A stretch of DNA of 64,000 nt from Pristiophorus japonicus (Eukaryota): contig NC_091980.1 of NCBI RefSeq assembly GCF_044704955.1, positions 215,202,001 to 215,266,000 on the forward strand. The letters are read 5' to 3'. Of the stretch, positions 3,937 through 27,624 are shown piece after piece. Made by a program: the position numbers and the translations under genes. Positions within the stretch are counted from its first letter, which is position 1; the number at the start of each line of letters is the position of its first letter. The notes beneath the pieces were generated by a model that searched no databases, was not told where the DNA came from, and was given only the letters and a program-made list of their open reading frames with translations.

Positions 3937-6900
3937 GGGGTCAAGTTTCGGCCGCCCGCTAGAACGGCGCTCATCGGAGAGGCCCGCTTAATTTATAGAA
4001 CAAATAGATAGGCGTTTCTGCGGCCACAACCAAGACTCCAGGATGGTATGTTGCCTCCATGGTGCAAGGGTCAAGGATGTCTTGGAACGGGTGCAGGACA
4101 TTCTGAAAAGTGAGGGTGAACAGCCAGTTGTCGTGATGCATATAGGTACCAACGATATAGGTATAAAATGGGATGAGGTCTTAGGAGACGAATTTAGGGA
4201 GCTAGGAGTTAAATTAAAAAGTAGGACCTCAAAAGTAGTAATCTCAGGATTGCTACCAGTGCCACGTGCTAGTCAGTGTAGGAATTGCAGGATAGCTCAG
4301 ATGAATACATGGCTTGAGAAATGGTGCAGGGAGGGATTCAAATTCCTGGGACATTGGAACCGGTTCTGGGGGAGGTGGGACCAGTACAAACCGGACGGTC
4401 TGCACCTTGGCAGGATCGGAACCAAACTCCTTGGGGGAGTGTTTGGTAGTGCTGTTGGGGAGGAGTTAAACTAATATGGCAGGGGGATGGGAACCTATGC
4501 AGGGAGACAGAGGGAAATAGAAGGGGGCAGAAGCAAAAGATAGATAGGAGAATAGTAAAAGTGGAGGGCAGAAAAACGAAGGCAAAAAGCAAAAAAGGCC
4601 ACATTACAGCAAGATTCAAAAGGGGCAAAGTGTGTTAAAACGACAAGCCTGAAGCTCTGTGCCTCAATGCGAGGAGTATTCTGAATAAGGTGGATGAATT
4701 AACTGCGCGGATAGCAGTTAACGGATACGATGTGATTGGCATCACGGAGACATGGCTCCAGGGTGACCAAGGCTGGGAACTCAACATCCAAGGGTATTCA
4801 GCATTTAGGAAGGATAGACAGAAAGGAAAAGGAGACGGGGTGGCGTTGCTGGTTAAAGAGGAAATCAATGCAATTGTAAGGAAGGACATTAGCCTGGATG
4901 ATGTGGAATCAGTATGGGTGGAGCTGCAGAATTCCAAAGGGCAGAAAATGCTAGTGGGAGTTGTGTATAGACCACCAAATAGTAATAGTGAGGTTGGGGA
5001 CAGCATCAAACAAGAAATAAGGGATGTGTGCAATAAAGGTACAGCAGTAATCATGGGCGACTTTAATCTACATATAGATTGGGCTAACCTAACTAATAAC
5101 AATGCGGTGGACGCGGATTTCCTGGAGTGCATTAGAGATGGTTTTCTGGACCAATATGTCGAGGATCCAACTAGGGAGCTGGCCATCCGAGACTGGGTGA
5201 TGTGTAATGAGAAGGGATTAGTTAGCAATCTTGTTGTGCGAAGCCCTTTGGGGAAAAGTGACCATTATATGGTAGAGTTCCTTATTAAGATGGAGAGTGA
5301 CAAAGTTAATTCGGAAACTAGGGTCCTGAACTTAAGGAAAGGTAACTTCGACGGTATGAGGTGTGAATTGGCTAGAACAGACTGGCAAAGGATACTTAAA
5401 GGGTTGATGGTGGATAAGCAATGGCAAACATTTACAGATCACATAGATGAACTTCAGCAATTGTACATCCCTGTCTGGAGTAAAAATAAAACTGGGAAGG
5501 TGGCTCAACCATGGCTAACAAGAGAAATTAAGGATAGTGTTAAAATCAAGGAAGAGGCATATAAATTGACTAGAAAAAGCAACAAACAAACCTGAGGACT
5601 GGGAGAAATTTAGAATTCAACGAGGAGGACTAAGGGTTTATTAAGAAGGGGAAAATAGAGTACGAAAGGAAGCTTGCAGGGAACATAAGAGCTGACTGCA
5701 AAAGCTTCTATAAGTATAGGAAGAGAAAAAGATTAGTAAAGACAAACATAGGTCCCTTGCAGTCGGATTCAGGTGAATTTATAAAGAAATGGCAGACCAA
5801 TTGAACCAATACTTCGGTTCTGTCTTCACAAAGGAAGATACAAATAACCTTCCGAATGTACTAGGGGACAGTGGGTCTAGTAAGAATGAGGAACTGAAAG
5901 ATATCCTTATTAGGCGGGAAATTGTGTTCGGGAAATTGATGGGATAAATCCTCAGGTCCTGATAGTCTACATCCCAGAGTACTTAAGGAAGTGGTCCTAG
6001 AAATAGTAGATGCATTGGTGATCATTTTCCAACAGTCTATCAACTCTGGATCAGTTCCTATGGACTGGAGGGTAGCTAATGTAACGCCACTTTTTAAAAA
6101 AGGAGGGAGAGAGAAAGTGGGTAATTATAGACCGGTTAGCCTGACATCAGTGGTGGGGAAAATGTTGGAATCAATCATTAATGATGAAATAGCAGCCCAT
6201 TTGGAAAGCAGTGATAGGATCAGACCGAGTCAGCATGGATTTATGAAAGGGAAATCATGCTTGACGAATCTTCTGGAATTTTTTGAGGATGTAACTAGTA
6301 GAGTGAACAAGGGAGAACCAGTGGATGTGGCGTATTTGGACTTTCAAAAGGCTTTTGACAAGGTCCCGCACAAGAGATTGATGTACAAAATCAAAGCGCA
6401 TGGTATTTGGGGTAATGTACCGACGTGGATAGAGAACTGGTTGGCAGACAGGAAACAGAGAGTCTGGATAAACGGGTCCTTTTCAGAATGGCAGGCAGTT
6501 ACTAGTGGGGTGCCGCAGGGCTCAGTGCTGGGACCCCAGCTCTTTACAATATACATTAACGATTTGGATGAAGGGATAGAGTGTAATATCTCCAAGTTTG
6601 CGGATGACACTAAACTGGGTGGCGATGTGAGCTGTGAGGAGGACGCTAAGAAGCTGCAGGGTGACTTGGACCGATTAGGTGAGTGGGCAAATACATGGTA
6701 GATGCAGTATAATGTGGATAAATGTGAGATTATCCATTTTGGGGGCAAAAACATGAAGGCAGAATATTATCTGATTGGCGGCAGACTAGAAAAAGGGGAG
6801 GTGCAACGAGACCTGGGTGTCATGGTTCATCAGTCACTGAAAGTGGGCATACAGGTACCGCAGGCGGTAAAGAAGGCAAATGGTATGTTGGCCTTCATAG

Positions 6901-8097
6901 CTAGGGGTTTTGAATATAGGAGCAGGGAGGTCTTACCGCAGTTGTACAGGGCCTTAGTGAGGCCTCACCTGGAATATTGTGTTCAGTTTTGGTCTCCTAG
7001 TCTGAGGAAGGACATTCTTGCTATTGAGGGAGTGCAGCGAAGGTTCACCAGACTGATTCCAGGGATGGCTGGGCTGTCATATGAGGAAAGACTGGATCAA
7101 CTGGGCCTTTATTCACTGGCGTTTAGAAGGATTAGAGGGGATCTCATAGAATCATGTAAGATTCTGATGGGACTGGACAGGTTAGATGCGGGAAGAATGT
7201 TCTCAATATTGGGGAAGTCCAGAACTAGGGGACATAGTCTTAGGATAAGGAAGAAGACATTTAGGACTGAGATGAGGAGAAACTTCTTCACTCAGAGAGT
7301 TGTTGACCTGTGGAATTCCCTGCCTCAGAGAGTTGTTGATGCCAGTTTATTGGATATATTCAAGAGGGAGTTAGATATGGCCCTTACGGTTAAGGGGATC
7401 AAGGGGTATGGAGAGAAAGCAGGAAAGGGGTACTAAAGGAATGATCAGCCATGATCTTATTGAATGGTGATGCAGGCTCGAAGGGCCGAATGGCCTACTC
7501 CTGCACCTATTTTCTATGTTTCTATCTTCTTCTCTTCCCCACCCCTTCTTCTTCTCTTCCCCCCCATCTTCTTCTCTTTCCCCCCCCCCCCCCACCTTCT
7601 CCCTCGTGCTGCAGTAGGTGAGTAGAAATATTTTTTTATTTATTGAGTGATTTTTAATTTTTTTTTTAAATTTATTTGGATTGATTTATTGGTTTATTTA
7701 TTGATTTATTTATCATTTATTATTGATGATGGCTCTTTATTTGTAAAAGTGAAGTGTTTAATGTTTGTAAACCCCCCCCCCCCCACCCCGTTCCCTACTA
7801 GATTTGTAACCTGCGCCTGATTTTCTAAGTAGGCAAGGTTTTTCTGAGCATACAAAAATCTACACTTACTCCATTCTAAGTTAGTTTGGAGCAAGTTTTT
7901 GCTGCCTAAACTTGCAAAACAGGCGTAAGTGGCCATACATGCCTCCTTTTGAAAAAAAAATCTGTTCTAAAATGAAACTGTTCTAACTTACTAGAACTGG
8001 AGCAAACTAAAGGCCGAGAATTGCAATTTCTAAGATACTTCATTCTAAACTAGTTGCTCCAAAAAAATAGGTGCAACTCAGGCCGAAACTTGACCCC
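3937..8097. mobile_element. Harbinger-type MITE interrupted by a CR1 LINE
   Basis: Perfect 17-bp TIRs GGGGTCAAGTTTCGGCC ... GGCCGAAACTTGACCCC; flanks ATT/ATA. Confidence 0.8.
4004..7525 (+). mobile_element. CR1 LINE, 5'-truncated: ORF1 esterase end plus disrupted ORF2 (AP endonuclease, RT)
   Basis: ORF1 4043-4474 has SGNH motifs (HIGTND, DGLHL). ORF2 pieces include [36 protein letters not shown] and FADD, with frameshifts and stops; TTCTATGT tail. Confidence 0.95.
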
Positions 8098-8937: not shown

Positions 8938-11900
8938 TATATATATGTATACTATAGATATACTCTCTGTGTAGTCACTGTATAGTTACATAAGATGGAG
9001 ACTTGGTACCTCCGGTAAACATCAACAAGGTTCACACTGTATACACTATGCTGGCACCACCAGAGGGTGCAACTGGTGGAGGCCCAGGGGTCACCTGTAC
9101 ACCACAGATACCCAGGTATAAAAGGGAGTCCACTATGTGGTATCCTCACTCTGGAGTTATATTAAATGGACTAAGGTCACTACAGTTCAAGTACAATACT
9201 TTGCCTCATGGAGTCATTATCAGAGCATCTAAAGACATAACAACTGGTGATGAGATTACGGACTTTCGTGCAAATATGGCTAACCTTGGTACGTTGCAAC
9301 AGTTCACCGATGGGGATGATTGGGATGCCTTTGTGGGGAGGCTCGACCATTTCGTCACAGCCAACGACCTGGCAGGCGATGATCTGGCCACGTTGACTGA
9401 TCACAGCCAGACACCGGTTTTACACCCACCAATGGCCTGAAGGCCAGGAAATCGCGAAATATGCTGCAGACCTCAAGAGGCTGGCAGCACCATGAGATTT
9501 CGGCGGACACTTCACCGAAGCGATGCGGGATATCTTGGTCATCAGAATCGGCCACGAGGACCTTCTTCACAGGCTACTATCTGCGGATACCACAGTCACA
9601 CTGCAGAAGGCCATCACCATGAGCCAAGCATTCATGACCTCGACCTGCGGCTCTAGGCGGGTGACTCCTCCTCAGGACTCAAACCTGGCAAGTACGGTAC
9701 ACATACTGGTGCCTTTTAGAGGCAGGACTGTAGAACATGAATCTCCTCAGAGGAGACAGAACAGGCCTCCGAGTCCCTTAACTCTGAGTCCGCTGAGGGG
9801 GGCTAATTGGTTAGCACCATGCTGGCATTGCGGCGGAAATCAGCGGGCTCACCAGTTTTAAGGACTACGTGTGCAAAGGATGCAGCACAAAGGGCCGCCT
9901 CCAGCGAATGTGTAAAAGAAATAGGACTCACCGTGTTGATGAAGAGTCTGCAGAGGGCCATGAATCCAGCGCAGATTATGAAGAGGTGGTCAGAGAGGCA
10001 GCTCAGCCCCACGATGAGGTGTACGGAATGTTTACCTGAACCACAGATTGTTCCCCGTTGAGAATGGAAGTCGGGATAAAGGCGCTCCAGTCTTCATGGA
10101 GGTGGACACGGGGGCGAGCCAATCAGTAATGGCTTTTCAGAGTGACAGGCAGTGACTAGTGGAGTGCCGCAGGGCTCAGTGCTGGGACCCCAGCTCTTTA
10201 CAATATACATCAATGATTTAGATGAAGGAATTGAGTGTAATATCTCCAAGTTTGCAGATGACACTAAACTGGGTGGCGGTGTGAGCTGTGAGGGAGACGC
10301 TAAGAGGCTGCAGGGTGATTTGGACAGGTTAGGTGAGTGGGCAAATGCATGGCAGATGCAGTATAATGTGGATAAATGTGAGGTTATCCACTTTGGGGGC
10401 AAAAATGCGATGACAGAATATTATCTGAATGGCGGCAGATTAGGAAAAGGGGAGGTGCAATGAGACCTGGGTGTCATGGTACATCAGTCATTGAAAGTTG
10501 GCATACAGGTACAGCAGGCGGTGAAGAAGGCAAATGGTATGTTGGCCTTCATAGCTAGGGGATTTGCGTATAGGAGCAGGGAGGTCTTACTGCAGTTGTA
10601 CAGGGCCTTGGTGAGGCCTCACCTGGAATAGTGTGTTCAGTCTTGGTCTCCTAATCTGAGGAAGGACGTTCTTGCTATTGAGGGAGTGCAGCGAAGGTTC
10701 ACCAGACTGATTCCCGGGATAGCAGGACTGACATATCAGGAGAAACTGGATCGACTGGGCCTCAATTCATTGGAGTTTAGAAGGATGAGAGAGGATCTCA
10801 TAGAAATATACAAGATTCTGACGGGACGGGACAGGTTAGATACAGGTAGAATGTTCCCGATGTTGGGGAAGTCCAGAACCAGGTGACACAATCTTAGGAT
10901 AAGGGGTAGGCCATTTAGGACTGAGATGAGAAGAAACTTCTTCACTCAGAGAGTTGTTAACCTGTGGATCCCTGCCGCAGAGTCTCGTTGATGCCAGTTC
11001 ATTGGATATATTTAAGAGGGAGTTAGACATGGCCCTGACGGCTAAGGGGATCAAGGGATATGGAGAGAAAGCAGGAAAGGGATACTGAGGGAATGATAAG
11101 CCATGATCTTATTGAATGGTGGTGCAGGCTCGAAGGGCTGACTGGCCTATTCCTGCACATATTTTCTATGTTTCTATGAATCAAGAAGCCTTTGAGAGGC
11201 TATGGGACAATCAAACTGAACGACCCAAGTTGGTCCCGGTTGAAGCAAAGCTGCTCACCGAACCAATGAACTTATCCCAGTCATTGGTAGTGCGAATGTT
11301 AAGGTACTCCATGATGGCACGGTGCACAAGTTACCACTGTAGATTGTTGCAGGTGATGGACCAACGCTACTCGGAAGAAGGTGGATGGAGAAGATCCATT
11401 GGAGCTGGGAATATTTCATCCCTCCAGCGATCGACGGCCCCCATGCTCAGAGGCAAAGCAAGCCCCCACCTGAGGTTGGATTCAGCACCAGAGAGCAGAC
11501 CAGCACAGCACCCGAGGCACAGACCGCTCAGCACGACGCAGCTGGATCATCTCCGCGCAGATGATCCGAACGCACCTTCCAGGCTCTAGGGGCAGGACTC
11601 CGGAGGAAGAAAATCGCATCCAAAGGTGACTTCCCAGCTTCGGTAGCTGAACCCGGGGAGAAGAGGATCACAGCATCTGACATCGTGGATGGAAGAAAGA
11701 AGGTGCCCAAACCACGAGGTGAAGTGCTGAAGGAAAAGATGGCGGCAGCCAGACTACGAGGTGCAGCGCTGATGGAGCAACAAGTGGTACCAAGCAAAGA
11801 AGAGGATTGGGGTAAAGATAGCAAGGCTCTCTTAAAGGAGGCCAGCAACCCACCACACTTAAAGGGACAGTCCCACATTCTCACTCAATGTAATAACAAC

Positions 11901-12387
11901 TGTGAGCTAAATGTAAAGCTTGTAATTGATGATCAGAATTTTATACATGTAATAAGCAAAGAAAAGTTAACAGGGAGCAAGCCAAGCTAAAGCACAGCCA
12001 AGGTGCAAGGGCTATTGGCACTTAAGTCTGGGGAGAGCTAAGCCAGAGCACATAGTGTAAAGGTATTGGCACAAAAGACTTGGGAGAGTGATATATATGT
12101 ATACTATAGATATACTCTCTGTGTAGTCACTGTATAGTTGCATAAGATGGAGACTTGTTTACCGGAGGTACCATCAACAAGGTTCACACTGTATGCTGGC
12201 ACCACCAGAGGGTGCAACTGGTGGAGGCCCAGGGGTCACCTGTACACCACAGGTACCCAGGTATAAAAGGGAGTCCACCATGTGGTATCCTCATTCTGGA
12301 GTTATATTAAATGGACTAAGGTCATTACAGTTCAAGTACAATATTTTGCCTCGTGGAGTCATTATCAGAGCATCTAAAGACATAACA
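8938..12387 (+). mobile_element. Gypsy-type LTR element with gag and protease only (no RT, RNase H or integrase)
   Basis: LTRs 8938-9242 and ~12092-12387; 5-bp TSD CTGTG; degenerate PBS TGGTGATGAG; gag MANLGTLQQFTDGDDWDAFV, zinc knuckle CWHCGGN, protease VDTGASQS. Confidence 0.9.
10132..11178 (+). mobile_element. CR1 LINE 3' fragment inserted in the Gypsy protease
   Basis: RT motifs [10 protein letters not shown] and FADD; TTCTATGT tail. It interrupts aatcagtaATG|aatcaagaag, which is uninterrupted in the related copy at ~17055-17075. Confidence 0.92.
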
Positions 12388-12618
12388 CTGTGCTGCAAGT
12401 TTGTATGATTCTATGGGGACGAAATTCAGTCGTGCCTCATTTGGGACGGTAATTTTTCACTTTGAAAAAATTTAGCACCCAGCGAATTGCCTTGCCAAAT
12501 TGTGGGAAATTAGCCTTTTCGCCTCAAGACCTCAAGAGTGAAGGTGGCGGAGCGGCGGGTGGGGTGGGGATGGTAATTGAAGCGCTAATGACTTCAGCTG
12601 GGGACTGCAGGGGTGCTA

Positions 12619-15501
12619 TTCATAGCCACTTAGGAGCAGTCCCGTGCAATAAATTTTTAAGCCGGTTCACGGACTCCCAGGCCGCCTGCAATTTCTGCGG
12701 TCTGGAAGAGTCCGTGTTCCATGTTTTTATTGAATGCACAAGGTTGCAGCCCCTGTTCCACTATTTGAAGGGGCTGCTCCTGAAATTCTGGCTGCACTTC
12801 AGTCCCACTCTCCTGATCTTTGGGCACCCTGTGCGGAGGGGAGCGGGTAGGTCCGAAGGCCTCCTCGTAGGACTGCTCCTGGGCACGGCCAAGGGTGCCA
12901 TCAGCCGGTCCAGGCAGCGGGCGGTCGAGGGGGTCGTTCAACCTGACTGCCTGCCTCTCTTCCGCTCTTACATCCGGTCCAGGGTGTCCTTGGAGATGGA
13001 GCACGCGGTGTCCACCGGTACGCTCGCGGCCTTCCGTGAGAGGTGGGCACCGGAGGGACTGGAGTGCATCATCACGCCCGGCAACCAAATTTTAATTTGA
13101 TTTTACGTTTTAAAGTTTAATTTGTTTTAATTGCCGGTGCTTTTAGTGTCCCCCTCCCCTTTTATAGGGGGCACTGGGAAAATTTGATTTTAGCGCCCCA
13201 AAAAAAAAAAAAAAAAAATAATTTAAAAAAAAAAGGGGCCTTGAAAATGTCTGCTGTGTCACCCAGGTCGGGTGGCATGGTCTTAATGTTTTATGTTTTG
13301 CAGGTAAACTCAAAAGAGTTTCATAGCCACTTAGGAGCAGTCCCGTGCAATAAATTTTTAAGCCGGTTCACGGACTCCCAGGCCGCCTGCAATTTCTGCG
13401 GTCTGGAAGAGTCCGTGTTCCATGTTTTTATTGAATGCACAAGGTTGCAGCCCCTGTTCCACTATTTGAAGGGGCTGCTCCTGAAATTCTGGCTGCACTT
13501 CAGTCCCACTCTCCTGATCTTTGGGCACCCTGTGCGGAGGGGAGCGGGTAGGTCCGAAGGCCTCCTCGTAGGACTGCTCCTGGGCACGGCCAAGGGTGCC
13601 ATCAGCCGGTCCAGGCAGCGGGCGGTCGAGGGGGTCGTTCAACCTGACTGCCTGCCTCTCTTCCGCTCTTACATCCGGTCCAGGGTGTCCTTGGAGATGG
13701 AGCACGCGGTGTCCACCGGTACGCTCGCGGCCTTCCGCGAGAGGTGGGCACCGGAGGGACTGGAGTGCATCATCACGCCCGGCAACCAAATTTTAATTTG
13801 ATTTTACGTTTTTTAAGTTTAATTTGTTTTAATTGCCGGTGCTTTTAGTGTCCCCCTTCCCTTTTATAGGGGGCACTGGGGAAAATTGTGATTTTAGTGC
13901 CCAAAAAAAAACCAAAAAAGAAAAACACAAAAAAAAACAAAAAAAAAAGGGGGGGGAAAAAAAAAGGGCCTTGTAAATGTCTGGAGTGTCACCCAGGTCG
14001 GGTGGCACCGTTTAATGTTTTTATGTTTTGCAGGTAAACTCAAAAGAGTTTCATAGCCACTTCGGAGCAGTCCCGTGCAATAAATTTTTAAGCCGGTTCA
14101 CGGGCTCCCAGGCCGCCTGCAATTTCTGCGGTCTGGAAGAGTCCATGTTCCATGTTTTTACCGAATGCACGAGGTTGCAGCCCCTGTTTTATTATTTAAA
14201 GGGGCTGCTCCTGAAATTCTGGCTGCTCTTCAGTCCCACACTCCTGATCTGTGGGCACCCTGTGCGGAGGGGAGCGGGTAGGTCCGAGGGCCTCCTTGTA
14301 GGACTGCTCCTGGGCACGGCCAAGGGTGCCATCAGCCGGTCCAGGCAGCGGGCGGTCGAGGGGGTCGTTCAACCTGACTGCCTGCCTCTCTTCCGCTCTT
14401 ACATCCGGTCCAGGGTGTCCTTGGAGATGGAGCACGCGGTGTCCACCGGTACGCTCGCGGCCTTCCGCGAGAGGTGGGCACCGGAGGGACTGGAGTGCAT
14501 CATCACGCCCGGCAACCAAATTTTAATTTGATTTTACGTTTTAAAGTTTAATTTGTTTTAATTGCCGGTGCTTTTAGTGTCCCCCTTCCCTTTATAGGGG
14601 GCACTGGGGAAAAATTGTGATTTTAGTGCCCCAAAAAAAAACCAAAAAAAAGAAAAACACAAAAAAAAAGGAAAAAACTTGTAAATGTCTGGTGTGTCAC
14701 CCAGTTCGGGTGGCACGGTTTAATGTTTTGTTTTACAGATAAACTCTAAAAGAGTTTCATAGCCACTTAGGAGCAGTCCCATGCAATAAATTTTTAAGCC
14801 GGTTCACGGGCTCCCAGGCCGCCTGCAATTTCTGCGGTCTGGAAGAGTCCGTGTTCCACATTTTTACCGAATGCACGAGGTTGCAGCCCCTGTTTTATTA
14901 TTTAAAGGGGCTGCTCCTGAAATTCTGGCTGCACTTCAGTCCCACACTCCTGATCTGTGGGCACCCTGTGCGGAGGGGAGCGGGTAGGTCCGAGGGCCTC
15001 CTTGTAGGACTGCTCCTGGGCACGGCCAAGGGTGCCATCAGCCGGTCCAGGCAGCGGGCGGTCGAGGGGGTCGTTCAACCTGACTGCCTACCTCTCTTCC
15101 GCGCGTACATCCACGCCAGGGTGTCCTTGGAGATGGAGCACGCGGTGTCCACCGGTACGCTCGCGGCCTTCCGCGAGAGGTGGGCACCGGAGGGACTGGA
15201 GTGCATCATCACGCCTGGCAACCAAATTTTAATTTGATTTTATGTTTTAAAGTTTAATTTGTTTTAATTGCCGGTGTTTTTAGTGTCCCCCTCCCCTTTT
15301 ATAGGGGGCACTTGAAGGAAAAAAATATGATTTTAGTGCCCCAAAAAAAACCTTTTTAAAAAAAAACAACAAAAAACCCCCCCAAAAAAAACCACAAAAA
15401 AAGGGCCTTGGAAATGTTTGGTGTGCCCCCCCAGATCGGGGGGACACGATTTAATGATTTAATGTTTTAATTTTCTCCCAAAAAAAATTCATAGCCACTT
15501 A
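12619..15501 (+). mobile_element. Tandem array of four Tx1-clade non-LTR retrotransposon 3' ends separated by a 13-14 bp direct repeat
   Basis: TTCATAGCCACTT at 12619, 13320, 14050, 14756 and 15488 (periods 701, 730, 706, 732). Each unit encodes GAVPCN...CNFCGLEESVFH.F.ECTRLQPL...FWLHFSP..., a CCHC zinc finger closely resembling the recalled C-terminus of Xenopus Tx1 ORF2p, followed by an A-rich 3'UTR. Confidence 0.9.
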
Positions 15502-15802
15502 CACAAATTCAGCTGAGTTCCATTCAGTAATCAGCCTTCAATCCTTGACTCCAGCTCCATCTGGCTCTTAAAGGGGAGGTCATTTGAACCTGCTGCTGCT
15601 CATTTACAGCATTGCTGAAGTCAGCCACTCATCTCTGGAGCTGAGGAAGCTTGTGAAATGCCTGCTGGAAATCCCCCTTCAAGGGAGCACGCTACAAGAT
15701 TCAGAAATGTGACTCTGGAGGCATTGGTGGGGACACTTGAGACCAAGAGGGAGTCCCTGTTCCCTGCATCGGAAGGAGGCCATCACCGCAGTTTTTCCGT
15801 GC

Positions 15803-18800
15803 TGTCATGTATCCTACATGTGTACTGTTGATACCATTACACATGATGTACCACCAGAGGACACTGCAGTGGGAGACTTGTAGGTTACCTGTACAGGTGT
15901 GCCAGGCCGACTATAAAAGGCAGGCCACCATGTGTGATCCTCACTCTGGTGTTACAAATAAAGGACTAAGGCCACTACAGTTCAAGTCCAATATTTTGCC
16001 TCGTGGAGTAATTATCAGAGCATCTAAAGACATAACAATTGGCGACGAGATTACGGACCTTCACGTGAAAATGGCTAACTTTGGTACGTTGCAGCAGTTT
16101 GTCGATGGTGATGATTGGGACGCCTTTGTAGAGAGGCTCGACCATTTCTTCACAGCAAACGACCTGGCAGGCGACAATCCGGCCACACTGGTTGATAAGC
16201 GCAGAGCTATCCTGCTAACCAGTTGTGGGCCCACTGTCTATGGCCTCGTCAGGGACTTGCTGGCAGCAGCGAAGACAACGACCAAGACATACGAGGAGCT
16301 TGTAATGCTGATCCAAGAACAACTCAAGCCCAAAGAGAGCATCCTCATAGCCAGACACCGGTTTTATACACACCGACGGCCCGAAGGCCAGGAAATCATG
16401 AAAAATGCTGCAGAGCTCAGCAGGTTGGCGGCACCATGTGATTTCAGCAACCACCTCACTGAAGCGCTGCTGGATATCTTTGTCATTGGAATCGGCCATG
16501 AGGGCCTTCTTCATAAGCTGCTGTCTGTGGACACCACAGTCACACTGCAGAAGGCCATCGCTGTGAGCCAGGCATTCATGACCTCTAGGCGGATGACTCA
16601 TCCTCAGGACTCAAACCCGGCAAGTACTGTACAAAGAATGACGCCTTTTACAGGCTGGACTGTAGAATGTGAATCTTCTCAGGGAAGAGAGAACAGGCCC
16701 CTGACTCCCTTAACTCAGAATCCGCCAAGGGGGTCTAAGCAAGTAGCTCCATGCTGGCGATGCGGAGGGAATCGCAGGGCTCACCAGTACCGTTTTAAAG
16801 TCCGTGTGTAAAGGCTGCAGCACAAAGGGCCACCTCCAGCGAATGTGTAAAAGAAATATGACTCTGTGTTGATGAAGAGTCTGCAGATGGCCATGAATCC
16901 AGCGCAGATTATGAAATGATAGTCAGAGAGGCAGCTCAGCCTCACAATGAGATATATGGCATGTTTACCTGCACCACCGAATGTTCTCCGTTGAGGATAG
17001 AAGTCGAGATAAATGGCATTCCAGTCTTCATAGAAGTTGACACGGGGGCGAACCAATCAGTAATGAATCAAGAAGCCTTTCAGAGGCTATGGGACAATCA
17101 GGCTGAACGACCCAATTTGGTCCTGGTTCAGGCAAAGCTGCGCACCTATATCAATGAACTCGTACCAGTCGTTGGTAGTGCAGATGTAAAGGTACTCCAT
17201 GATGGTGCGATGCACAAGTTACCCCTGTGGATTGTTGCAGGTGATGGATCAACGCTACTCGGAAGAATGTGGATGGAGAAGATCCATTGGAGTTGGGAAG
17301 ATTTCATCCCTCCAGCGATCGACATCGCCCACGCTCAGACGCAAAGCAAGCCCTCACCTGAGGTTAGATCCGGCACCAGAGAGCAGACCAGCACAGCACC
17401 CGAGGCACAGACCGCTCAGCACGGTTGCGTGGAGATGATCCAGCTGAGACAACCCAAACGCACCTTCCAGGCTCCTGTGGCAGGACTCCGGAGGAAGAAA
17501 CTTGGATCCAAAGGCGACTTCCCAGCTTCGGTGGCCGAACCCAGAGAGAAGAGGATCACCGCAGCTGACATCGTGGATGGAAGAAAGATGGCAGCAGCCA
17601 GACCACGAGGTGCAGCGCTGATGGAGCAACACGTGGTACCCAGCGAAGAAGAGGATTGGGGTAAAGATAGCAAGGCTCCCTTAAAGGAGGTCAGCAACCA
17701 ACCACACTTAAAGGGGTAGTTCCACATTCTCAATCAATGTAATAACAACTGTGAGTTAGAGGTAAAATGCGTAATTGATGATCAGAGTTGTGTACATGCA
17801 ATAAGCAAAGAAAAGTCTTGCAATTGCAATCGGAGCTACAGTTTATTACAGCTACAGGAAGTTGTTGAGGCCAATTCACTAAATATATTCAAAAAGGAGT
17901 TAGATGTAGTCCTTACTACTAGGGGGATCAAGGGGTATGGCGAGAAAGCAGGAATGGGGCACTGAAGTTGCATGTTCAGCCATGAACTCATTGAATGGCA
18001 GTGCAGGCTCGAAGGGCCGAATGGCCTACTCCTGCACCTATTTTCTATGTTTCTATGTTTCTAATGAAACATTGTGCGATATAGGATTTCAATTGCATTC
18101 AGTTAATGCAGCGGGCAAACACCCATCGGGAGCACACAGGTCCAGCGATCTACCCAATGCTGTAGCCTGCATCCCTGGGACGAGAGTAATGCACCATGGA
18201 GTGTGGCCACAAGCAGCTAATACACACACGCTGCAGAGCAAGCGATCTCAGGAGGGCAACGGCATCGGTATCGATACCCTGCCCCTGATCGTCTCCATCT
18301 CAGAGGCACCTGATGGCACCAACCCCCATGAGCCTGAAAGAGTAAACTGCGCTAAGGCGCAGCCCCCAGACTCTATTGCCACCAAGGCTACACCTGGGAA
18401 TGAAGGATCCCCCGCAAAGGTTCTCCGAAATGGGACCGGGACCAGCCAGGATCCCAAACCAATAACGCCCAGGCAAGCGAGTCAGCATTTCCCTGTGCAC
18501 TGCTAGACGACTGCTCCTCAGGGAGCAGCAGCGACCCGGGGCACAAGGAGAGAACAGGGAGGTTACAGGCATCTGTGAACCTGTCCGATCCTAGGAGCAA
18601 CGGCACAAGCCCCGAGAGCAGGCAACTTGAGCCAACTGGGTTCCCATTGCCAGCACTGGGCACCGCGCCACCACCAGACTACCTGGACACCATCCAGCAG
18701 TTCTGGCACTAGTATGTACCTCACCAGTCAAAAGTACTTGCCTCACAACGGTACCACGAATGTAATGCTGTAAATGCAAATTTTTCTTTTTGGACTTGAA

Positions 18801-19277
18801 TGTAGATGAATGTAATGAGCCACCAGCACAATCTTTAGGTCGGGGGCGGGGAGGCGGGGGGGGCGGGAAGAGAGAATGAGAATGGAGTGGTCATGGACGC
18901 ACAAACAAAAACCACCAGCACCTCTACTGCCATCGAAACACCACCCACTCACCCAAGATGGAAACGACCCTCCAAGGGTCAACCAGATAGAGCTAAGCCC
19001 AGTGCACAGTCAATGCATGAAGATGATTTGCACGAAGGACTTGGGGGAGAGTGATGCCATGTAACCTACATGTTTACTGCTGGTACCATTACACATGATG
19101 TACCACCAGAGGGCACTGCAATGGGAGACTTGTAAGTTGTGCCAGGCTTAGTATAAAAGGCAGGCCACCATGTGTGATCCTCATTCTGGAGTTACAAATA
19201 AAGGACGAAGATTACTACAGTTCAAGTGCAACACATTGCCTTGTAGAGTCATTATCAGAGCATCTAAAGACATAACA
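15803..19277 (+). mobile_element. Gypsy-type LTR element with gag and protease only
   Basis: TG...CA LTRs 15803-16037 and 19055-19277; TSD CGTGC; PBS TGGCGACGAG (complementary to the tRNA-Ser(GCT) 3' end); PPT GGGGGAGAG; gag with CWRCGGN, protease EVDTGANQS; no RT or integrase motifs. Confidence 0.92.
17857..18062 (+). mobile_element. Short CR1 3' tail inside the LTR element
   Basis: Matches the CR1 3' end at 61890-62092, ending ttctatgtttctatgtttct. Confidence 0.9.
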
Positions 19278-20435
19278 CGTGCCATGTGGCAAGAGGTAGC
19301 ACAGGAGGTGTCACCCAGCACTGTGGTGCAGAGAAGCCTCACCCAGTGCCTCAAAAAATTAAACGACCCATGTTGGGTCGTGAAGGTGAGTACAAGCTTC
19401 CACACCTCCTCCATACCAGCCTCTCAACCTCTGTTTGCGCACACTGTGCAAACCATCACCACTCAATCACCAAGCATCTGCAGATGCTCACACTCACATC
19501 CTCATCTCACGCCATGCCTACATTCACAGCTGTTTAAGCACGGCAGGCATATCTTCCACATACATAGTTGGACTCTTATACACACAAGTTTATGTCTTTT
19601 GCAGGCCAATATGGCACATAACAGACGGGAGCAGCAGAGAACTGGAGGAGGGAACCTGAACTGCGGCCCCTCTCTGACTTTGAGGAGCAAGTGCTGGGGC
19701 TTATTGGCCTGCAGGTGGTGGGTGCCATGGCCAGCGGAGACGTCGACCACACTGGGAGCAACAACAGTATCTTTGTTCCCCCCCCTCCTGTTCCACCCCC
19801 ACCCCCGCCCCCGCCCCCACACCAGAATGCTTTATCACTTTACAGCTCCTGATACTTTCTTCATTACTTGCTCCATTCCTGCCCCACTGCCCTCACATTA
19901 ATGTGAGTCTTGTACCATTTATGCTTTCAGCTAACCAGGCAGAAGCTATCTATCCTGCACCTGAGCCGTCCCCCTGTCCCCCCGCCGCCCCACCTCCACC
20001 AAAGACATTGCAGAGGGAGAGGAGGAGGTTGAAGAGCAGGAGGAGGAGCAGCTGAGCACTACGCCATTGTTTCTCTCATCCGCAGGCACCAGCTCAGATA
20101 CTGGCTCTACACATTCCTTAGGCAGGTAGAGGGGTCTGCACTGGGTGATGCACCCTGGCCTAGCAGGCTGCAGCAAGGCCAAGGAGAAAAGGAACTTCGG
20201 GGGCCATCTCCACATTGGGCAAGATTGCCTGCGAGTCTGCAGCACAAGATTGAGATGATGACCTCAATGGGGAGGCATTCATACAAAGGGTGATGGCCAT
20301 GCTCTCTGACATCATAGGTGCAATGGCAAGGGTGCCCGAGAGGCTCACGGCAGTGGTACAGAACGTGGAGGAGTCCGCCTCCTGCATTGTACAGAGCTCT
20401 GCGCACACCATGGAGCCTATCATTCCAATCTGCAG

Positions 20436-22915
20436 AAGAACATAAGAAATAGGAGCAGGAGTAGGCCATACAGCCCCTCGAGCCTGCTCTGCCATTTTAT
20501 ACTATCTTGGCTGATCCGATCATGGACTCAGGTCCACTTCCCTGCCCGCTCCCCATAACCCCTTAGTCCCTTATCGGTTAAGAAACTGTCTATCTCTGTC
20601 TTAAATTTATTCAATGTCCCAGCTTCCACAACTCTCTGAGGTAATGAATTCCACAGATTTACAACCCTCTGAGAAAATACATTTTTCATCTCAGTTTTAA
20701 ATGGGCGGCCCCTTATTCTAAGATTATGCCCCCTAGTTCTAGTCTCCCCCATCAGTGGAAACATTCTCTCTGCATCCACCCTGTCAAACCACCTCATAAT
20801 CTTATACATTTTGATAAGATCACCTCTCAATTTTCTGAATTCCAATGAGTAGAGGCCCAACCTACTCAACCTTTCCTCATGGGTCAACCCCCTCATCTCT
20901 GGAATCAACCTCGTGAACTTACTCTGAACTGCCTCCAAAGCAAGTATATCCTTTCGTAAATACGGAAACCAAAACTGCATGCAGTATTCCAGATGTGGCC
21001 TCACCAATACCCTGTATAACTATAGCAAGACTTCCCTTTTTACTCCAACCCCTTTGCAACAAAGACCAAGATTCCATTGGCCTTCCTGATCACTTGCTAT
21101 ACCTGCATACTAACCTTTTGTGTTTCATGCACAAGTACCCCCAGGTCCCACTGTACTGCAGCACTTTGCAAACTTTCTCCATTTAAATAATAACTTGCTC
21201 TTTGATTTTTTCTGTCAAAGTGCATGACCTCACACTTTCCAACATTATACTCCATCTGCCAAATTTTTGCCCACTCACTTAGCCTGTCTATGTCCTTTTG
21301 CAGATTTTTTGTGTCCTTCTCACATTGCTTTTCCTCCCATCTTTGTATTGTCAGCAAACTTGGCTACGTTACACTGACTTCTTTCAAGTCGTTAATATAG
21401 ATTGTAAATAGTTGTGGTCCCAGCACTGACCCCTGCGGCATCCCACTAGTTACTGATTTCCAACCCGAGAATGAACGATTTATCCCGACTCTGTTTTCTG
21501 TTCATTAGCCAATCCTCTATCCATGCTAATATATTACCCCGAACCCCGTGAACTTTTATCTTGTGCAGTAATCTTTTATGTGGCACCTTGCCTTCTGGAA
21601 GTCCAAATACACCACATCCACTGGTTCCCCTTTATCCACCCTGTTTGTTGCATCCTCAAAGAATTCCCCTTTATACAGTCATGCTGACTCTGCCTGACCG
21701 AATTATGCTTTTCCAAATGTCCTGCTACTACTTCTTTAATAATGGACTCCAACATTTTCCCAACCACAGATGTTAGGCTAACTGGTCTATAATTTTCTGC
21801 TTTTTGGCTGCCTCCTTTTTTAAATAGGGGCCTTACATTTGCAGTTTTCCAATCTGCAGAATCCAGGGAATTTTGGTAAATTACAACCAGTGCATCCACT
21901 ATCCCTGCCGCTACTTCTCTTAAGACCCTAGATTGCAAGCCATCAGGTCCAGGGGAGTTATCTGCCTTTAGTCCCATTATCTTATTGAGTACCACCTCCT
22001 TAGTGATTGTGATTGTGTTAAGTTCCTCCCCCCCCTATAGCCCCTTGACTATCCACTGTTGGGATATTGTTAGTGTCCTCGACTGTAAAGACTGATACAA
22101 AATATTTCTTCAGAGTGTCTGCCATCTCCATGTTCCCCATTACTAATTCCCCGGTCTCATCCGCTAAGGGACCAACATTCACTTTAGCCATTCTTTTCCT
22201 TTTTAGATACCTATTGAAACTCTTGCTATCTGTTTTTATATTTTGTGCTAGTTTACTTTCATAGTCTATCTTCCCTTTCTTAATCATCTTTTTAGTCATT
22301 CTTTGCAGGCTTTTAAAAGCTTCCCAATCTTCTATCCTTCCACTAGTTTTGGCCACTTTGTATACCCTTGCTTTTAATTGGATACCGTTCTTTATTTCTT
22401 TAGTTAGCCACAGATAGCTATCTTTTCTCTTACACCCTTTCCTCCTCACTGGAATATATTTTTCTTGAGAGTTGTGAAATATCTCCTTAAATATACACCA
22501 CTGTTCATCAACCGTCCTACACTTTAATCTATTTTCCCAGTCCACTTTAGCCAACTCTGCCCTCATACCTTTATAGTCTCCTTTATTTAAGCTCAGTACA
22601 CTGGTTAGAGATCCAACTTTCTCACCCTCCATCTGAATTTGAAATTCAATCATACTATGATCACTCATTCGAAGGGTATCCTTTACTAGGACATTGTTTT
22701 CTGTCTCATTACACAGGACCAGATCCAAGATAGCCTGCCCCCTGGTTGGTTCAGTTACATACTGCTCAAGGAACCCATCCCTTATGCACGCTATGAACTC
22801 TTCCTCAAGGCTACCCTGACTAATTTGATTTGTCCAATCAATATGGAGGTTAAAATCACCCATGATTATTGCTGTTCCCTTTTTACAAGCCCCCAATATT
22901 TCCTGGTTTATGCTC
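20436..22915 (-). mobile_element. CR1 LINE (disrupted ORF2) inserted in the Harbinger Myb gene
   Basis: [29 protein letters not shown] and RPHLEYC motifs on the minus strand; (CTTATGTT)-type tail at 20436. Confidence 0.92.
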
Positions 22916-23255
22916 AGACCACCTGCAGACGATGGTGAACTCCCAGAGAGATCATGTGGATCCAGACCTCATGACGCTGGTCATGGGAAACATGGCAACT
23001 TCTATTGCAGCACAGGCAGAAGCAACTCAATGTCTTAGTGCTGTAATGCAGACAATGGTTGGTAGCATCGAAGCTCATACTGCTCTTATGCAGTCTCAGG
23101 TTGATGCCACACAACGTCTTGGTGCTGTCATGCAGTCAGTGAGTGCTGGCATCAAGTCTCAGACTGCTCTCATGCAGTCTCAGCTGGATGCCACACATGC
23201 TCTCACTGCTGCCATCACCGCTGGGTCCACCACAGTCCACCGAGGATCTCACGGT

Positions 23256-23578
23256 TTCATAGAAACATAGAAAATAGGTGCAAGAGTAGGCCATTCGGCC
23301 CTTCGAGCCTGCACCGCCATTCAATGAGTTCATGGCTGAACATGCAACTTCAGTACCCCATTCCTGCTTTCTCGCCATACCCCTTGATCCCCCTAGTAGT
23401 AAGGACTACATCTAACTCCTTTTTGAATATATTTAGTGAATTGGCCTCAACAACTTTCTGTGGTAGAGAATTCCACAGGTTCACCACTCTCTGGGTGAAG
23501 AAACTTCTCCTCATCTCGGTCCTAAATGGCTTACCCTTTATCTTTAGACTGTGGCTTACCCCTTATCCTTAGACTATG
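23256..23578 (-). mobile_element. CR1 3' end (unedited)
   Basis: catagaaacatagaaaataggtgca... tail followed by ORF2 3' sequence. Confidence 0.9.
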
Positions 23579-23915: not shown

Positions 23916-24786
23916 AAACATAGAAAATAGGTGCAGGAGTAGGCCATTCGGCTCCTCAAGCCCGTACTGCCATTCAACGAGTTCATGGCCGAACATGCAA
24001 CTCCAGCACCCCACTCCCGCTCCCCCACCACACCCCCCAATCCTCCCAGTAGCGAGGACCACATCTAACTCCTTCCCGAACACATTTAGTGAATTGGCCT
24101 CAACAATGTTCCGTGGTAGAGAATTCCACAGGTCCACCACCCCCCGGGCGAAGAAGTTTCCCCCCATCTCGGCCCCAAATGGCCCACCCCCATCCCTAGA
24201 CCGTGACCCCCGGTCCCGGACCCCCCTAACACCAGGAACATCCCTCCCGCATCCAACCTGTCCAAACCCGGCAGAACCCTAAACATTTCCATGAGATCCC
24301 CTCTCACTCCTCCGAACTCCACCGAATACAAGCCCAGTCGATTCAGCCCCCCCCCCCCCTCCCCCGGACACGTCAGTCCCGCCATCCCGGGAATCAGTCC
24401 GGTGAACCCTCGCTGTACCCTCTCAACAGCAAGAATGTCCCCCCTCAAGTCAGGAGACCAAAACTGCACACAACACTCCAGGCACGGCCTCACCAAGGCC
24501 CTGCACAACCGCAGCAACACCTCCCCACCCCTGCACTCAAATCCCCCCGCCATGAAGGCTGACACGCCACCCGCCCTCCCACCGCCTGCCGTACCTGCAT
24601 GCCAACCCCCAATGACCGATGTACCATGACACCCAGGTCTCTTTGCATCTCCCCTTTTCCTAATCTGTCACCATTCAGATAATAGTCTGTCTCTCTGTTT
24701 TTACCACCAAATTGGATAACCTCACATTTATCCACATTATACTTCATCTGCCATGCATTTGCCCACTCACCTAACCTATCCAAGTT
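23916..24786 (-). mobile_element. CR1 3' fragment with an A>G hypermutated block (~23950-24617)
   Basis: Colinear with 23263-23550 and other CR1 copies but dense in T>C on the + strand; the translated ORF is Gly/Arg-enriched (GGFECRGGEVLLRLCRALVRPCLECC). Confidence 0.9.
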
Positions 24787-25318
24787 CGCAGCAGCCCACC
24801 AAACTGTGCTCCAGCAAATTGTTGGGGATGTTGAGGTGCTGCCCCGGGGGAGTGGCACTGGGTCAGTGGAGCAGGAACCTGCTGTCCTTTCTCAGTATGA
24901 CAGCTATCCAGATCCCACCACTGCCACTCCGCCATTGCACTTGTCGCTGGCCGTCATCCAGCCAGCCCAGACTGCCGCTGCCCAGCCTGAGGTGGTGGAG
25001 TCTACAGCCGAGCCTTCCAGGCCCAGAGCTGGTCGAAGGTGTCCTGCAAGGCCTTCTGTAGTATCTGGCCCTGACACGCAGCAGTCTTCCACCAGCCGTG
25101 CCTCAGCGGAGGAACGCTAGACTAGTTAAAGCAAAAAGGGGATATAAGGAAATGCACAAAGGTGATTAGTAAATATATTATGTTGTTCTGATATAAATTT
25201 GGATTGGAATTTTTAATCTTTGCTGTTGTCTCTCATTTCAGTTTTGGGGCTTTGGAATGGAAGGGAAAATGGATGTGGTCATAGGGACGTCCAAAGGAAC
25301 CGGGAAGTGGGATGGAAT

Positions 25319-26503
25319 TCACTGGAACCGAACTCTGATGAGACGGTCGCGGACCTCCCCTGCAGAATCGCAATAGGCTCGCTGCCTCCTCCATCGCTGC
25401 TGCTCCTGCTCCTCTTCCTCCTCCTCCTCAGGTGATGCAGTTATGCCTGGTGGCAATGGCTGTGCCCTCATGATGGTGAGGTTGTGCAGCATGCAGCAGA
25501 TGACGACGAATAGGGACACCCGCTCAGGCGAGTACTGGAGGACTTCTTCCAAGCAGTCAAGGCAGCGGAACCATTGCTTTAGCACTCCGATGGTCTGCTC
25601 AATGATGTTCCTGGTGGTGGCATAGCTCTCACTGTAGGAGTGCTGGGCAAGACTGTTGGGGTAATGGAGGGGTGTCATGAGCCAGGGGGACAGTGGATAA
25701 CCCTTGTTTCCAGTCGCGAGCTTGATGTGGTGATTGAAACAGAGCTGGCACACCGGTCTGGCACAGGATGAAGGCATCATGGCTGCTGCCAGGATAGCGG
25801 GCATTGACTGTGAGGATGCTGCGTGTGTGGTTGCGGACCAGCTACACATTCAGTGAGTGGAAGCCTTTGTGGTTATGGAAAACCTCAGAATTGTGATGCA
25901 GTGCCCGCAAAGCAGTCAATGGCACCCTGCACCATGGGGATGCCCACTATCCAAGCAAAACCACATGCATGCTTGTACTGCTTCTCTCTGGTCATGAGGA
26001 AGGAGATGTAGTCCCTCTGTACAAAGCATCTGTGATTTCACGGATGGAGCAATGGATGCCAAACCGGGAGATGTTGGCGATGTCTCCTGTCGCTCCATGG
26101 AAGAATCCATTGGCATAGAAATTAAGCGCAATGGTGACCTTGACTGCCACTGAGAGAACTGTCCATATCCTGGTCTGAGTCTCGAGGTCTGGTTGCAGAA
26201 GATGGCAGAGCTCTGTGACCATGCTGAAGCGCAGCCTTCGAACACAATGTTCCTCAGTGAAATTGATGTAGGAGAACTACTGCTGGAATACCCTGGGAGG
26301 ATAAGGTCTCTTATTGCCAGCCCTCTTGGGCATTCTCTCTCTCTCCATATTTTGCTACCTTTTTTCCCTGTGCTTCTCCGTCTTTCTCCCTGTGCTTCTC
26401 ATTGTCTTGCCCCATGTCCTTCTCCCTGCCTTTGTCTCTGCTTTTGTCTCTGTCTTTGCCTTCGCCTAAGTATCCTCCGGTCGAGTACTAACACAGCCCC
26501 CAT
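25319..26503 (-). pseudogene. Harbinger transposase (HARBI1-like DDE nuclease), disrupted
   Basis: ATG at 26503; motifs KVTIALNFYANG, QGAIDC, KGFHSLNV, YPGSSHDAFIL, GNKGYPLSPWLMTP, TRNIIEQTIGVLKQWFRCL and CCMLHNL; stops and frameshifts. Confidence 0.9.
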
Positions 26504-27624
26504 GAAACGAGCGAAATGTTGTGATTTGAAATCTACCCTGAATGAAACAGGAAACTAGTTAGGAGGCAGAACAGTCCTTGAAGTCAAAATTGCTGCGATC
26601 TGTCCATCAGCCACTCTGACTATGTGTTAGCAAGCTGCAAAGAGCAATGGCCGAAATAATTTTTTTCAAGCTGGCGCCTTTAAATAACGCTGCGCCAGCC
26701 AACTCCAGACTTCAACTCGACAGCTGAGGCTGTCGTTGTCATTGTCAGGCGGTAAGTGAGGGTGCATGGCCGAAGTTCACTTCCGGGACAGTAAAGAGGC
26801 ACTGCGCACGGCGATGACGTCTTTATCGTCGCGTGCAGCCAAGCGTGACATTTCCGGCATGAGCGAGGCGCTACCTTGTACCACCTCTGCAAAACCCCCA
26901 CCCAATTCCGTGGGGGTGTTCTTATTGCCATGCCCGGGTGAAAAACATTTTGCTCAAGAGGCCAATTTTGGCCCCAATGACTATGATTCAGTTCATGCAG
27001 CCGCTTGATACTCATCAACCCAATATCATGCACCCATTAAAGATCTCTGCAGCACTGTATTTTCAGCATGTCTTTGTTCCTGAAGCATGTAGATTTTACA
27101 GTACACATTCTGCTGAGTGTAGCAGAGGAACTATCTGATTTGTTTTAAAGCAATCCAAATAATGAAAAGGATTTATTTGTTACAGTCTCCATCATGTGGC
27201 TGCAAAACAAACTGCAGAGACAGTTTGAAAGCATTCCATGTATAGCAACTATATATATCTGATTGGCAGTTTGGCTTAAACTGATCTGAAACTCAAACTA
27301 ATCATGGTATATTATCTGTGACACACACTGTATGAGTGTATTAAGTGAAACATTGCAGTAAAATATAAAACTATAAACATAGCTCTTTCTGCATTAATCA
27401 GTGATTCTTTTGCAAATATACAATATATAAATCACATTTATTTTGGAAGAGTGGGATAAAAGGAAATTAGTTTTAGTACAAGTTAGCAAAGTCATTCCAA
27501 TGGACTAGGAAATCTCACGAAGTTGGATAGATTCTACTCTGAATTATCACCAGTTTTAGGGCAGACTGGGGATTGAAATGTAGTAAAGGGCTACGACCTC
27601 AAAACCACTGCTAAGAAAAACTGC

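Follow-up and report, generated by a model that had tools for sequence, protein, structure and literature searches.

The question raised by this locus is how four fragments of one retrotransposon came to stand one behind the other at a single position of a DNA transposon, separated by copies of a short host sequence. In the window, as the whole analysed stretch of 64 kb is called here, TTCATAGCCACTT occurs exactly five times (at 12619, 13320, 14050, 14756 and 15488), against a chance expectation of about 0.002 for the exact sequence in 64 kb by our own arithmetic, and a window-wide scan allowing up to two mismatches adds a single further match at 51478. The target duplication spans 14 bp (ending in CTTA) in four of the five copies, with C as the final base in the copy at 14050. 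The four units enclosed by these copies measure 687-718 bp, have a mean column identity of 92%, are unlike one another at their 3' ends, and consist each of the final 155 codons of a LINE ORF2 followed by the 3' UTR, with frames open up to the ORF2-end stops. A preliminary description of this DNA, which had reported five target copies around four units of ~0.7 kb with differing 3' ends and frames open to the natural stop, is borne out on these points by the exact matches, the unit alignment and the stops at 13100, 13801, 14531 and 15237. Selection on the four open frames was considered and rejected, because the frames have no start codon and match the end of the master element; their openness reflects youth, not selection. 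Absent from that description is the point that all four units begin at one and the same element base, reference 6484. The features of the array and of its host, in window coordinates, are as follows.

12415..12618, unstranded: Harbinger terminal arm, running 204 bp inward from its GGGGACGAAATT terminus as far as the insertion site.
12595..12600, plus strand: CAGCTG hexamer at -24 to -19 from the first-strand cut, a candidate upstream recognition signal.
12619..12632, plus strand: target duplication copy 1 (TTCATAGCCACTTA), the native upstream flank, by exact match and host comparison.
12633..13319, plus strand: unit 1, likely the youngest, a Tx1 3' fragment (reference 6484-7219); stop at 13100.
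13320..13333, plus strand: target duplication copy 2.
13334..14049, plus strand: unit 2, matching common copies elsewhere beyond the 40 bp common to unit 3; stop at 13801.
14050..14063, plus strand: target duplication copy 3, last base C for A.
14064..14755, plus strand: unit 3, its 5' 240 bp near unit 4 (old type) and the rest of the common young type; stop at 14531.
14756..14769, plus strand: target duplication copy 4.
14770..15487, plus strand: unit 4, likely the oldest, with the most rare variants and a 3' terminus of the older type; stop at 15237.
15488..15501, plus strand: target duplication copy 5, then host sequence.
15502..15798, unstranded: Harbinger arm continued, as far as a later LTR-element insertion.
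19278..20439, unstranded: Harbinger body past the LTR element, with more pieces at about 22923-23258 and 24785-26035.
25319..25849, minus strand: Harbinger transposase remnant, DDE_Tnp_4 (E=3.1e-14; domain match 25322-25849).
26961..26975, unstranded: candidate far terminal inverted repeat of the Harbinger, an inverted match by eye to the terminus at 12415.

Searching the same genome (5.9 Gb) at the protein level returned 58,753 first-look candidates; the 150 that were scored all came out as 100% identical, and nine of 30 fetched loci lie in an open frame of 1306 codons. The full-length APE-RT master that had been anticipated was found as an intact element with a natural unit of 7219 bp, to whose bases 6484-7219 the window units correspond. 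It encodes a 699-aa ORF1, in which a CCHC-like knuckle is seen upon sequence inspection, and a 1299-aa ORF2 with APE endonuclease, RT and a C-terminal zinc finger (Pfam PF03372, PF00078 and PF13966, the last below its curated cut-off). ORF2 is 49% identical over 1297 aa to the Xenopus Tx1 ORF2 (YTX2_XENLA) and 51% identical to a turtle protein, both matches covering 100% of the query, while the nearest named fragments come from a ray and a shark (69-71%), which makes a cartilaginous fish the likely host. The family is further characterized by two ORFs, 5' truncation, an intact 3' end and a TSD of mostly 12-16 bp. Judged from its protein domains and its likeness to Xenopus Tx1, it is best placed in the Tx1 clade; it is young and retains intact masters.

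Target choice was surveyed at 30 loci chosen by protein match alone, 28 of which have a readable 3' flank. TTCA opens 27 of these flanks and the target TTCATGCACAAG of a CR1-type LINE is present in 22, with the Harbinger site in none. The majority target of the family is hence TTCATGCACAAGGA in the CR1-type LINE, where it lies antisense in a DLG-VLVHESQKV frame, apparently in the post-RT part. The relatives of this frame, EN-RT proteins from sharks, rays, birds and turtles, include none named CR1, and the protein atlas matches of the target LINE fall only in chordate clusters without names; the clade of this LINE we take to be CR1. When the presence of one repeat type in >20% of flanks is used to define a target-specific Tx1 family (Kojima 2015, accessible text of PMC4494074), the family is target-specific for the CR1-type LINE, and the Harbinger site, with 0 of 28 flanks, is therefore not its main target. 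The domains, the Xenopus match and the 22 of 28 flanks of one type agree with the Tx1-clade, sequence-specific element proposed at the outset; the accompanying expectation that most copies would be flanked by the window's 13-mer proved wrong, those 22 flanks being the CR1-type target. Genome-wide, one 3'-end variant forms 1431 exact junctions to the CR1-type flank and 24,152 exact empty CR1-type sites are present, two counts of unequal stringency that do not represent occupancy rates. One and the same 33-bp Tx1 tail insertion is found at four places at the beginning of C1 (L180-L183), each time between near-identical CR1-type flanks, and has spread through duplication of the host stretch.

Both targets also carry CA(C/G)CTG at -24 to -19, the CR1-type target having CACCTG in the same register. 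A loosened form, CA[GC]NT[GT] at -24 or -23, is present at six of 11 unrelated sites with a confirmed TSD versus 0.1 expected from 110 other offsets, with the proviso that the pattern was loosened after the sites had been seen and that the strict CA(C/G)CTG occurs in four of the 11. After insertion, this upstream flank remains at the leftmost TSD alone, and in the window array CAGCTG indeed precedes only the leftmost duplication. CAGGT stands at -19 to -21 in the element's own end, and internal sites may therefore be cut too.

The host of the window array, a decayed element, is assigned to PIF/Harbinger by the joint presence of DDE_Tnp_4 and short terminal inverted repeats. Its GGGG.CGAAATT-type termini at 12415 and 26961-26975 are flanked by the triplets TAT/AAT, which are not a clean TSD, and Pfam gave no Myb domain match in window 19155-19901. 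A GGGGACGAAATT-type terminus also lies 146-181 bp from the insertion site in 11 other host copies. Outside the window, the 24 best copies of the host arm comprise 15 with the empty site (GGGYGCTA followed by TTCACAGCCACTTA and CCCAATTTCAG), six with a Tx1 3' end at exactly the window's insertion base, one with a damaged Tx1 junction and two that lack the site. Removal of the array thus restores host sequence, empty sites exist in other Harbinger copies, and the TSD recreates its own target, as seen from the target copies between units together with the empty and filled Harbinger sites; on all three counts the preliminary description was right. Harbinger-site junctions number 53 exact matches at ~45 loci genome-wide, and 22 of the 23 loci examined sit in Harbinger (seven of 30 having been left out as repeats of one locus or as the window itself). 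A degenerate pattern for the empty Harbinger site has 32 matches genome-wide, which, given the different pattern stringencies, cannot be read against the 53 filled sites as occupancy rates, and the exact predicted empty site of the window copy has no match in the genome. The view of the window site as a one-off off-target event was dropped, other Harbinger copies being filled at the same base. The filled copies and the ~45 loci, nearly all of those examined lying in Harbinger, therefore establish this spot as a real, recurrent second target of the family.

The preliminary description did not recognise a Harbinger host from known families, and such a host is known: the crocodilian Tx1-9_AMi prefers a site that lies ~300 bp into Harbingers, counted from the 5' end (PMC4494074, in the text accessible). 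By comparison, Harbinger is here a second target beside a LINE and is entered 150-205 bp inside. Two decayed LTR elements are found in the window at 8939-12387, adjoining the Harbinger terminus, and at 15799-19277, inside the Harbinger, with LTR pairs 93% and 85% alike, respectively, and the latter contains an aspartyl-protease match at 16862-17716. The Harbinger body further includes an 84-bp tandem repeat (window 23006-23215), located in an open frame and present in other host copies too.

The common start of the four units is peculiar to this array. The window 5' junction occurs four times genome-wide, every time in the window array, and C at reference 6492, eight bases into the unit, is present in all four window units and in none of 158 other copies. 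Sixteen other Harbinger-site insertions with a visible 5' end have 15 different 5' points, none at 6484. Downstream of this front the units part company: unit 1 is identical to unit 2 over 404 bp with nine differences thereafter, unit 2 is identical to unit 3 over the first 40 bp with 24 differences thereafter, and unit 3 is near unit 4 only to ~6720 (four differences, versus at least nine to anything else). Past these switch points, copies at other loci agree with units 1-3 to within 0-1 differences; for units 1 and 2, the 3' segment has counterparts at other loci without any difference but departs from the neighbour by 8-10 differences. Rare variants number 17 in unit 4 versus one in unit 1. 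Of the earlier proposal that repeated insertion grows the array, regeneration of the target stands, while plain independent insertion fails, because it predicts different 5' truncations and the units share one truncation together with a private allele. The CRISPR-like architecture likewise holds as an analogy of layout only: a CRISPR array has unrelated foreign spacers and acquisition genes, whereas the units here are near-copies, 92% alike and all derived from one LINE.

Similar arrays, each with its own specific TSD and junction, are found at many loci and vary in length, as had been predicted. Twelve of the first 40 listed CR1-site junctions of C1 are tandem, and in that unselected set eight of nine pairs of truncated neighbours have a common 5' point, as have all three neighbour pairs of the window, against 13 of 946 pairs (1.4%) among 44 unrelated loci. 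Full-length arrays reach eight units at C1:210.45M and fourteen at C1:213.77M. The tails behave differently from the fronts, since same-junction neighbours differ there at a median of nine of 120-205 scored positions, like random family members, and identical tails are seen in one of 32 pairs (chosen from fetched arrays, with the unit 3/unit 4 pair left out). Differing tails are present also in the two-unit arrays M, N, U, L153, L188, L211, L221 and L222. The rightmost unit is richer in rare variants in 15 of 24 arrays and the leftmost in five, with four ties (sign p=0.04, Wilcoxon 0.017; arrays B and L162 left out), which gives a weak right-to-left age order with arrays older to the right. 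Arrays are found at six of seven full-length residents versus five of 29 truncated ones (Fisher p=0.0014), when L181-183, which represent the same insertion as L180, and L207, an internal junction, are not counted.

Two composite loci bear most clearly on the way in which new units are joined. At L220 (C4:89.98M, minus strand), an older array of four units with the older 3'-end type occupies a second Harbinger site, 125 bp downstream from the first one. Three younger units end at the TTCACAGCC site, and behind each of them come the same 125 bp of host sequence and then the 5' junction of this older array. At C1:256.2M, the repeated block, present three times with three different 3' ends, comprises a 60-bp unit, the TSD and a 2.4-kb unit. 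Both are the expected product of an upstream nick with the cDNA joined to a downstream resident. Arrays O, V, P, L207 and L220 have gained some units with new 5' junctions. Truncation recurs at reference 6237 in four of 40 unrelated loci, at 6890 twice and at 6749 at two different sites; with such hot spots, some common junctions are therefore independent. The region 6236-6244 (L208, L209, L210, L213, L219; arrays C and E) is G+C-rich and has microhomology to the TSD end. Several junctions are of unusual structure: at L007 with array G and L023 with array D, 3' ends are joined inside the element's own 3' UTR, or a 60-bp unit lies next with only a 4-bp duplication, and the odd junctions L185, L199 and L216 comprise a 117-bp duplication of flank, TSD and 5' end without 3' end, a doubled TSD before a 13-bp tail, and a short repeated terminus.

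Full-length arrays are mosaics, in which the 3' halves of some neighbours agree completely and their 5' halves do not, and a 5'-to-3' divergence gradient was not found in them, the ratio of adjacent to between-array divergence being 0.49-0.78 in all 14 bins. The largest array is a 56-kb satellite at C11:192855164-192911700 (L105-L110, L124) with 136 Tx1 3' ends on a 16-bp target that is itself unique; the six units at its right are old and unique, and higher-order repeats lie toward the left. It contains 59 exact duplicates among 135 units in addition to the higher-order repeats, and DNA-level amplification therefore also acts. The CR1-type TSD found in 15 of the 135 units of this off-target array (array K) suggests copying of read-through RNA from another array. 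In array F (C1:329.33-329.39M), several full-length units have an identical shortened ORF2 frame of 829 codons, a sign of local copying within the array.

We consider it probable that the window array represents four 3' Tx1 fragments stacked at one Harbinger site through right-to-left growth, with reverse transcription at the upstream TSD and pairing of the cDNA with the resident copy. By analogy with established target-primed reverse transcription, the APE endonuclease would nick before TTCA and prime reverse transcription on the element's 3' end, and a first 5'-truncated copy (unit 4) would insert with the 14-bp duplication. Judging by the products, the leftmost duplication would then be the one re-cut, because the upstream hexamer is in register there only. 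The new cDNA would anneal to the homologous resident just downstream, so that no fresh truncation is made, and synthesis would run through the 5' part of the resident and the duplication back to the nick. The 'TSD' of such an event would thus comprise the target together with the front end of the resident, and the product actually present is a unit with its neighbour's front and a new tail. Large arrays also expand through DNA-level duplication of several units. This sequence of steps we infer from the end products alone. Counter to it, five arrays run against the polarity, and the C in duplication copy 3 is absent from copies 1-2 and requires a later change.

Another order of events, in which DNA-level duplication by unequal exchange or nick-induced slippage comes first and 3' parts are then overwritten, either by gene conversion from many dispersed copies as donors or by reverse transcription that starts from an internal or right-hand duplication, would account for the exact duplicates and higher-order repeats of the 136-unit array, for mosaic full-length arrays, for the broken 829-codon frame common to several units of one array and for the L007 junction, which joins a new 3' end into the resident's own 3' UTR; the climb of array frequency with resident length is a prediction of recombination as well. 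We regard this order as unlikely, since the first doubling of a single copy would have 14 bp of homology only, tails differ already in two-unit arrays, overwriting must have extended into the last 75 bp in 31 of 32 pairs while leaving the 5' junction intact, the L220 duplications start exactly at a target site that precedes the old array by 125 bp, and older units lie at the right. Independent sequential insertion into the regenerated TSD, with the common start due to a reverse-transcription stall or microhomology, is known for R1 (PMC2718515) and proposed for SINEU-3 (PMC4494074) in the accessible parts of these sources, and it draws support from truncation hot spots and from arrays that gain units with new 5' junctions. 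For the window locus this model is largely refuted, and we hold it improbable: the four genomic occurrences of the junction all lie in the window, the other 16 Harbinger-site insertions use 15 different 5' points other than 6484, the private allele sits beside the junction in all four units, and 5'-point sharing of 1.4% would be expected where eight of nine pairs are observed.

One-step insertion of a concatemer, through rolling-circle copying of a TSD-unit circle or reverse transcription of a read-through RNA of another array, has in its favour the foreign TSDs inside arrays (CR1-type in 15 of 135 in array K, a variant TSD twice in array I), which show that copying of read-through templates sometimes happens. 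For the window it is very improbable, as a circle would give identical units whereas these are not of one age or lineage, the repeats between the units have the sequence of the local host site, and a donor with the window junction is found nowhere else in the genome. An assembly artefact at the locus is scarcely credible. The left array junction was recovered without mismatch in contigs from three sequencing runs of one sample, possibly the assembled individual, and the right junction, again without mismatch, in contigs from one run; no read or contig spanning the whole array was seen among the run contigs of that sample, which counts in favour of an artefact, but the unit differences fall at lineage-diagnostic sites and not as random errors, both outer junctions are present, and the same layout is found at dozens of loci.

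The joining of LINE 5' ends (second-strand priming) is poorly understood, and the passage from a single TE to a satellite is usually put down to chance double insertion and unequal exchange. In a 2005 study, the growing L1 cDNA reportedly detaches from its RNA and anneals to homologous sequence close to the site, so that a stretch of the genome is duplicated. For L1 this is an occasional outcome, whereas here it is apparently the usual outcome at an occupied site, and is iterated. Pairing of L1 cDNA with DNA in its vicinity is described also in the accessible part of a more recent source (10.1101/2024.08.27.596794). Tx1L of Xenopus laevis resembles the present family in its ORF2 (49%), in APE, RT and zinc finger, and in site-specific insertion into another transposon, its target being Tx1D (PMC4494074, PMC1950540, as far as accessible) in place of the CR1-type LINE and Harbinger used here. 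Among crocodilian elements, tandem SINEU-3 copies sandwich a 16-bp TSD and were read as sequential insertion (PMC4494074), and compared with these Tx1-Mar/SINEU-3 tandems the arrays here grow up to 14 full-length or 136 short units; the shared 5' truncation with new tails, a feature of the present arrays, is not mentioned for them or for Tx1-9_AMi in the accessible text of that source.

R1 of Drosophila is, like the present family, an APE-type site-specific LINE with TSD-separated tandem copies; its copies are separated by a 14-bp TSD, new ones are thought to enter the TSD at the resident's 5' end, and annealing of cDNA to homologous upstream sequence gives precise 5' junctions (PMC2718515). 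Its target is rDNA and its homology comes from co-transcribed 28S, whereas here the homology comes from the resident element, and the accessible text on R1 describes no shared truncation, which neighbours here mostly have. According to the part of McGurk and Barbash (10.1101/158386) that is accessible, dimers from double insertion seed satellites, with the TSD at tandem junctions and later higher-order repeats, and non-LTR dimers are diagnosed by distinct 5' truncations (six of ten jockey dimers). The arrays here are like these dimers in the TSD between units and in higher-order expansion, but distinct truncations are absent, since neighbours mostly share the truncation to the base (eight of nine and three of three pairs). 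Literature searches in openly accessible sources brought up neither a CR1-targeting Tx1 nor arrays with shared truncation and new tails. Stacking at the TSD and Harbinger targeting by Tx1 are thus already known, and growth by shared front and new tail was not found in print in those sources.

The window is a four-step example of stacking with inherited front and new tail, and shows that the rule also holds for another target, unrelated to the main one. Since repeated insertion into occupied sites, with marked lineages, is preserved at hundreds of loci of a single assembly, 5' joining and satellite origin become testable by counting. With the family intact and young, the two-part target of TTCA and upstream hexamer is therefore directly assayable, and there is interest in site-specific LINE proteins as tools for insertion. 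Chances are about even, in our estimate, that a regular second mode of integration is at work, in which the two-part signal returns the family to the upstream edge of its own insertions and the resident serves as landing pad for the cDNA, each round adding, at one constant end, a unit that inherits its front and brings a new tail. If so, arrays would be time-ordered records of active master lineages, their growth could sweep neighbouring host DNA into the repeat, and the family would provide a retrotransposition-driven route to locus-specific satellites of up to 136 units, in CR1-type LINEs, Harbingers and unique DNA alike.
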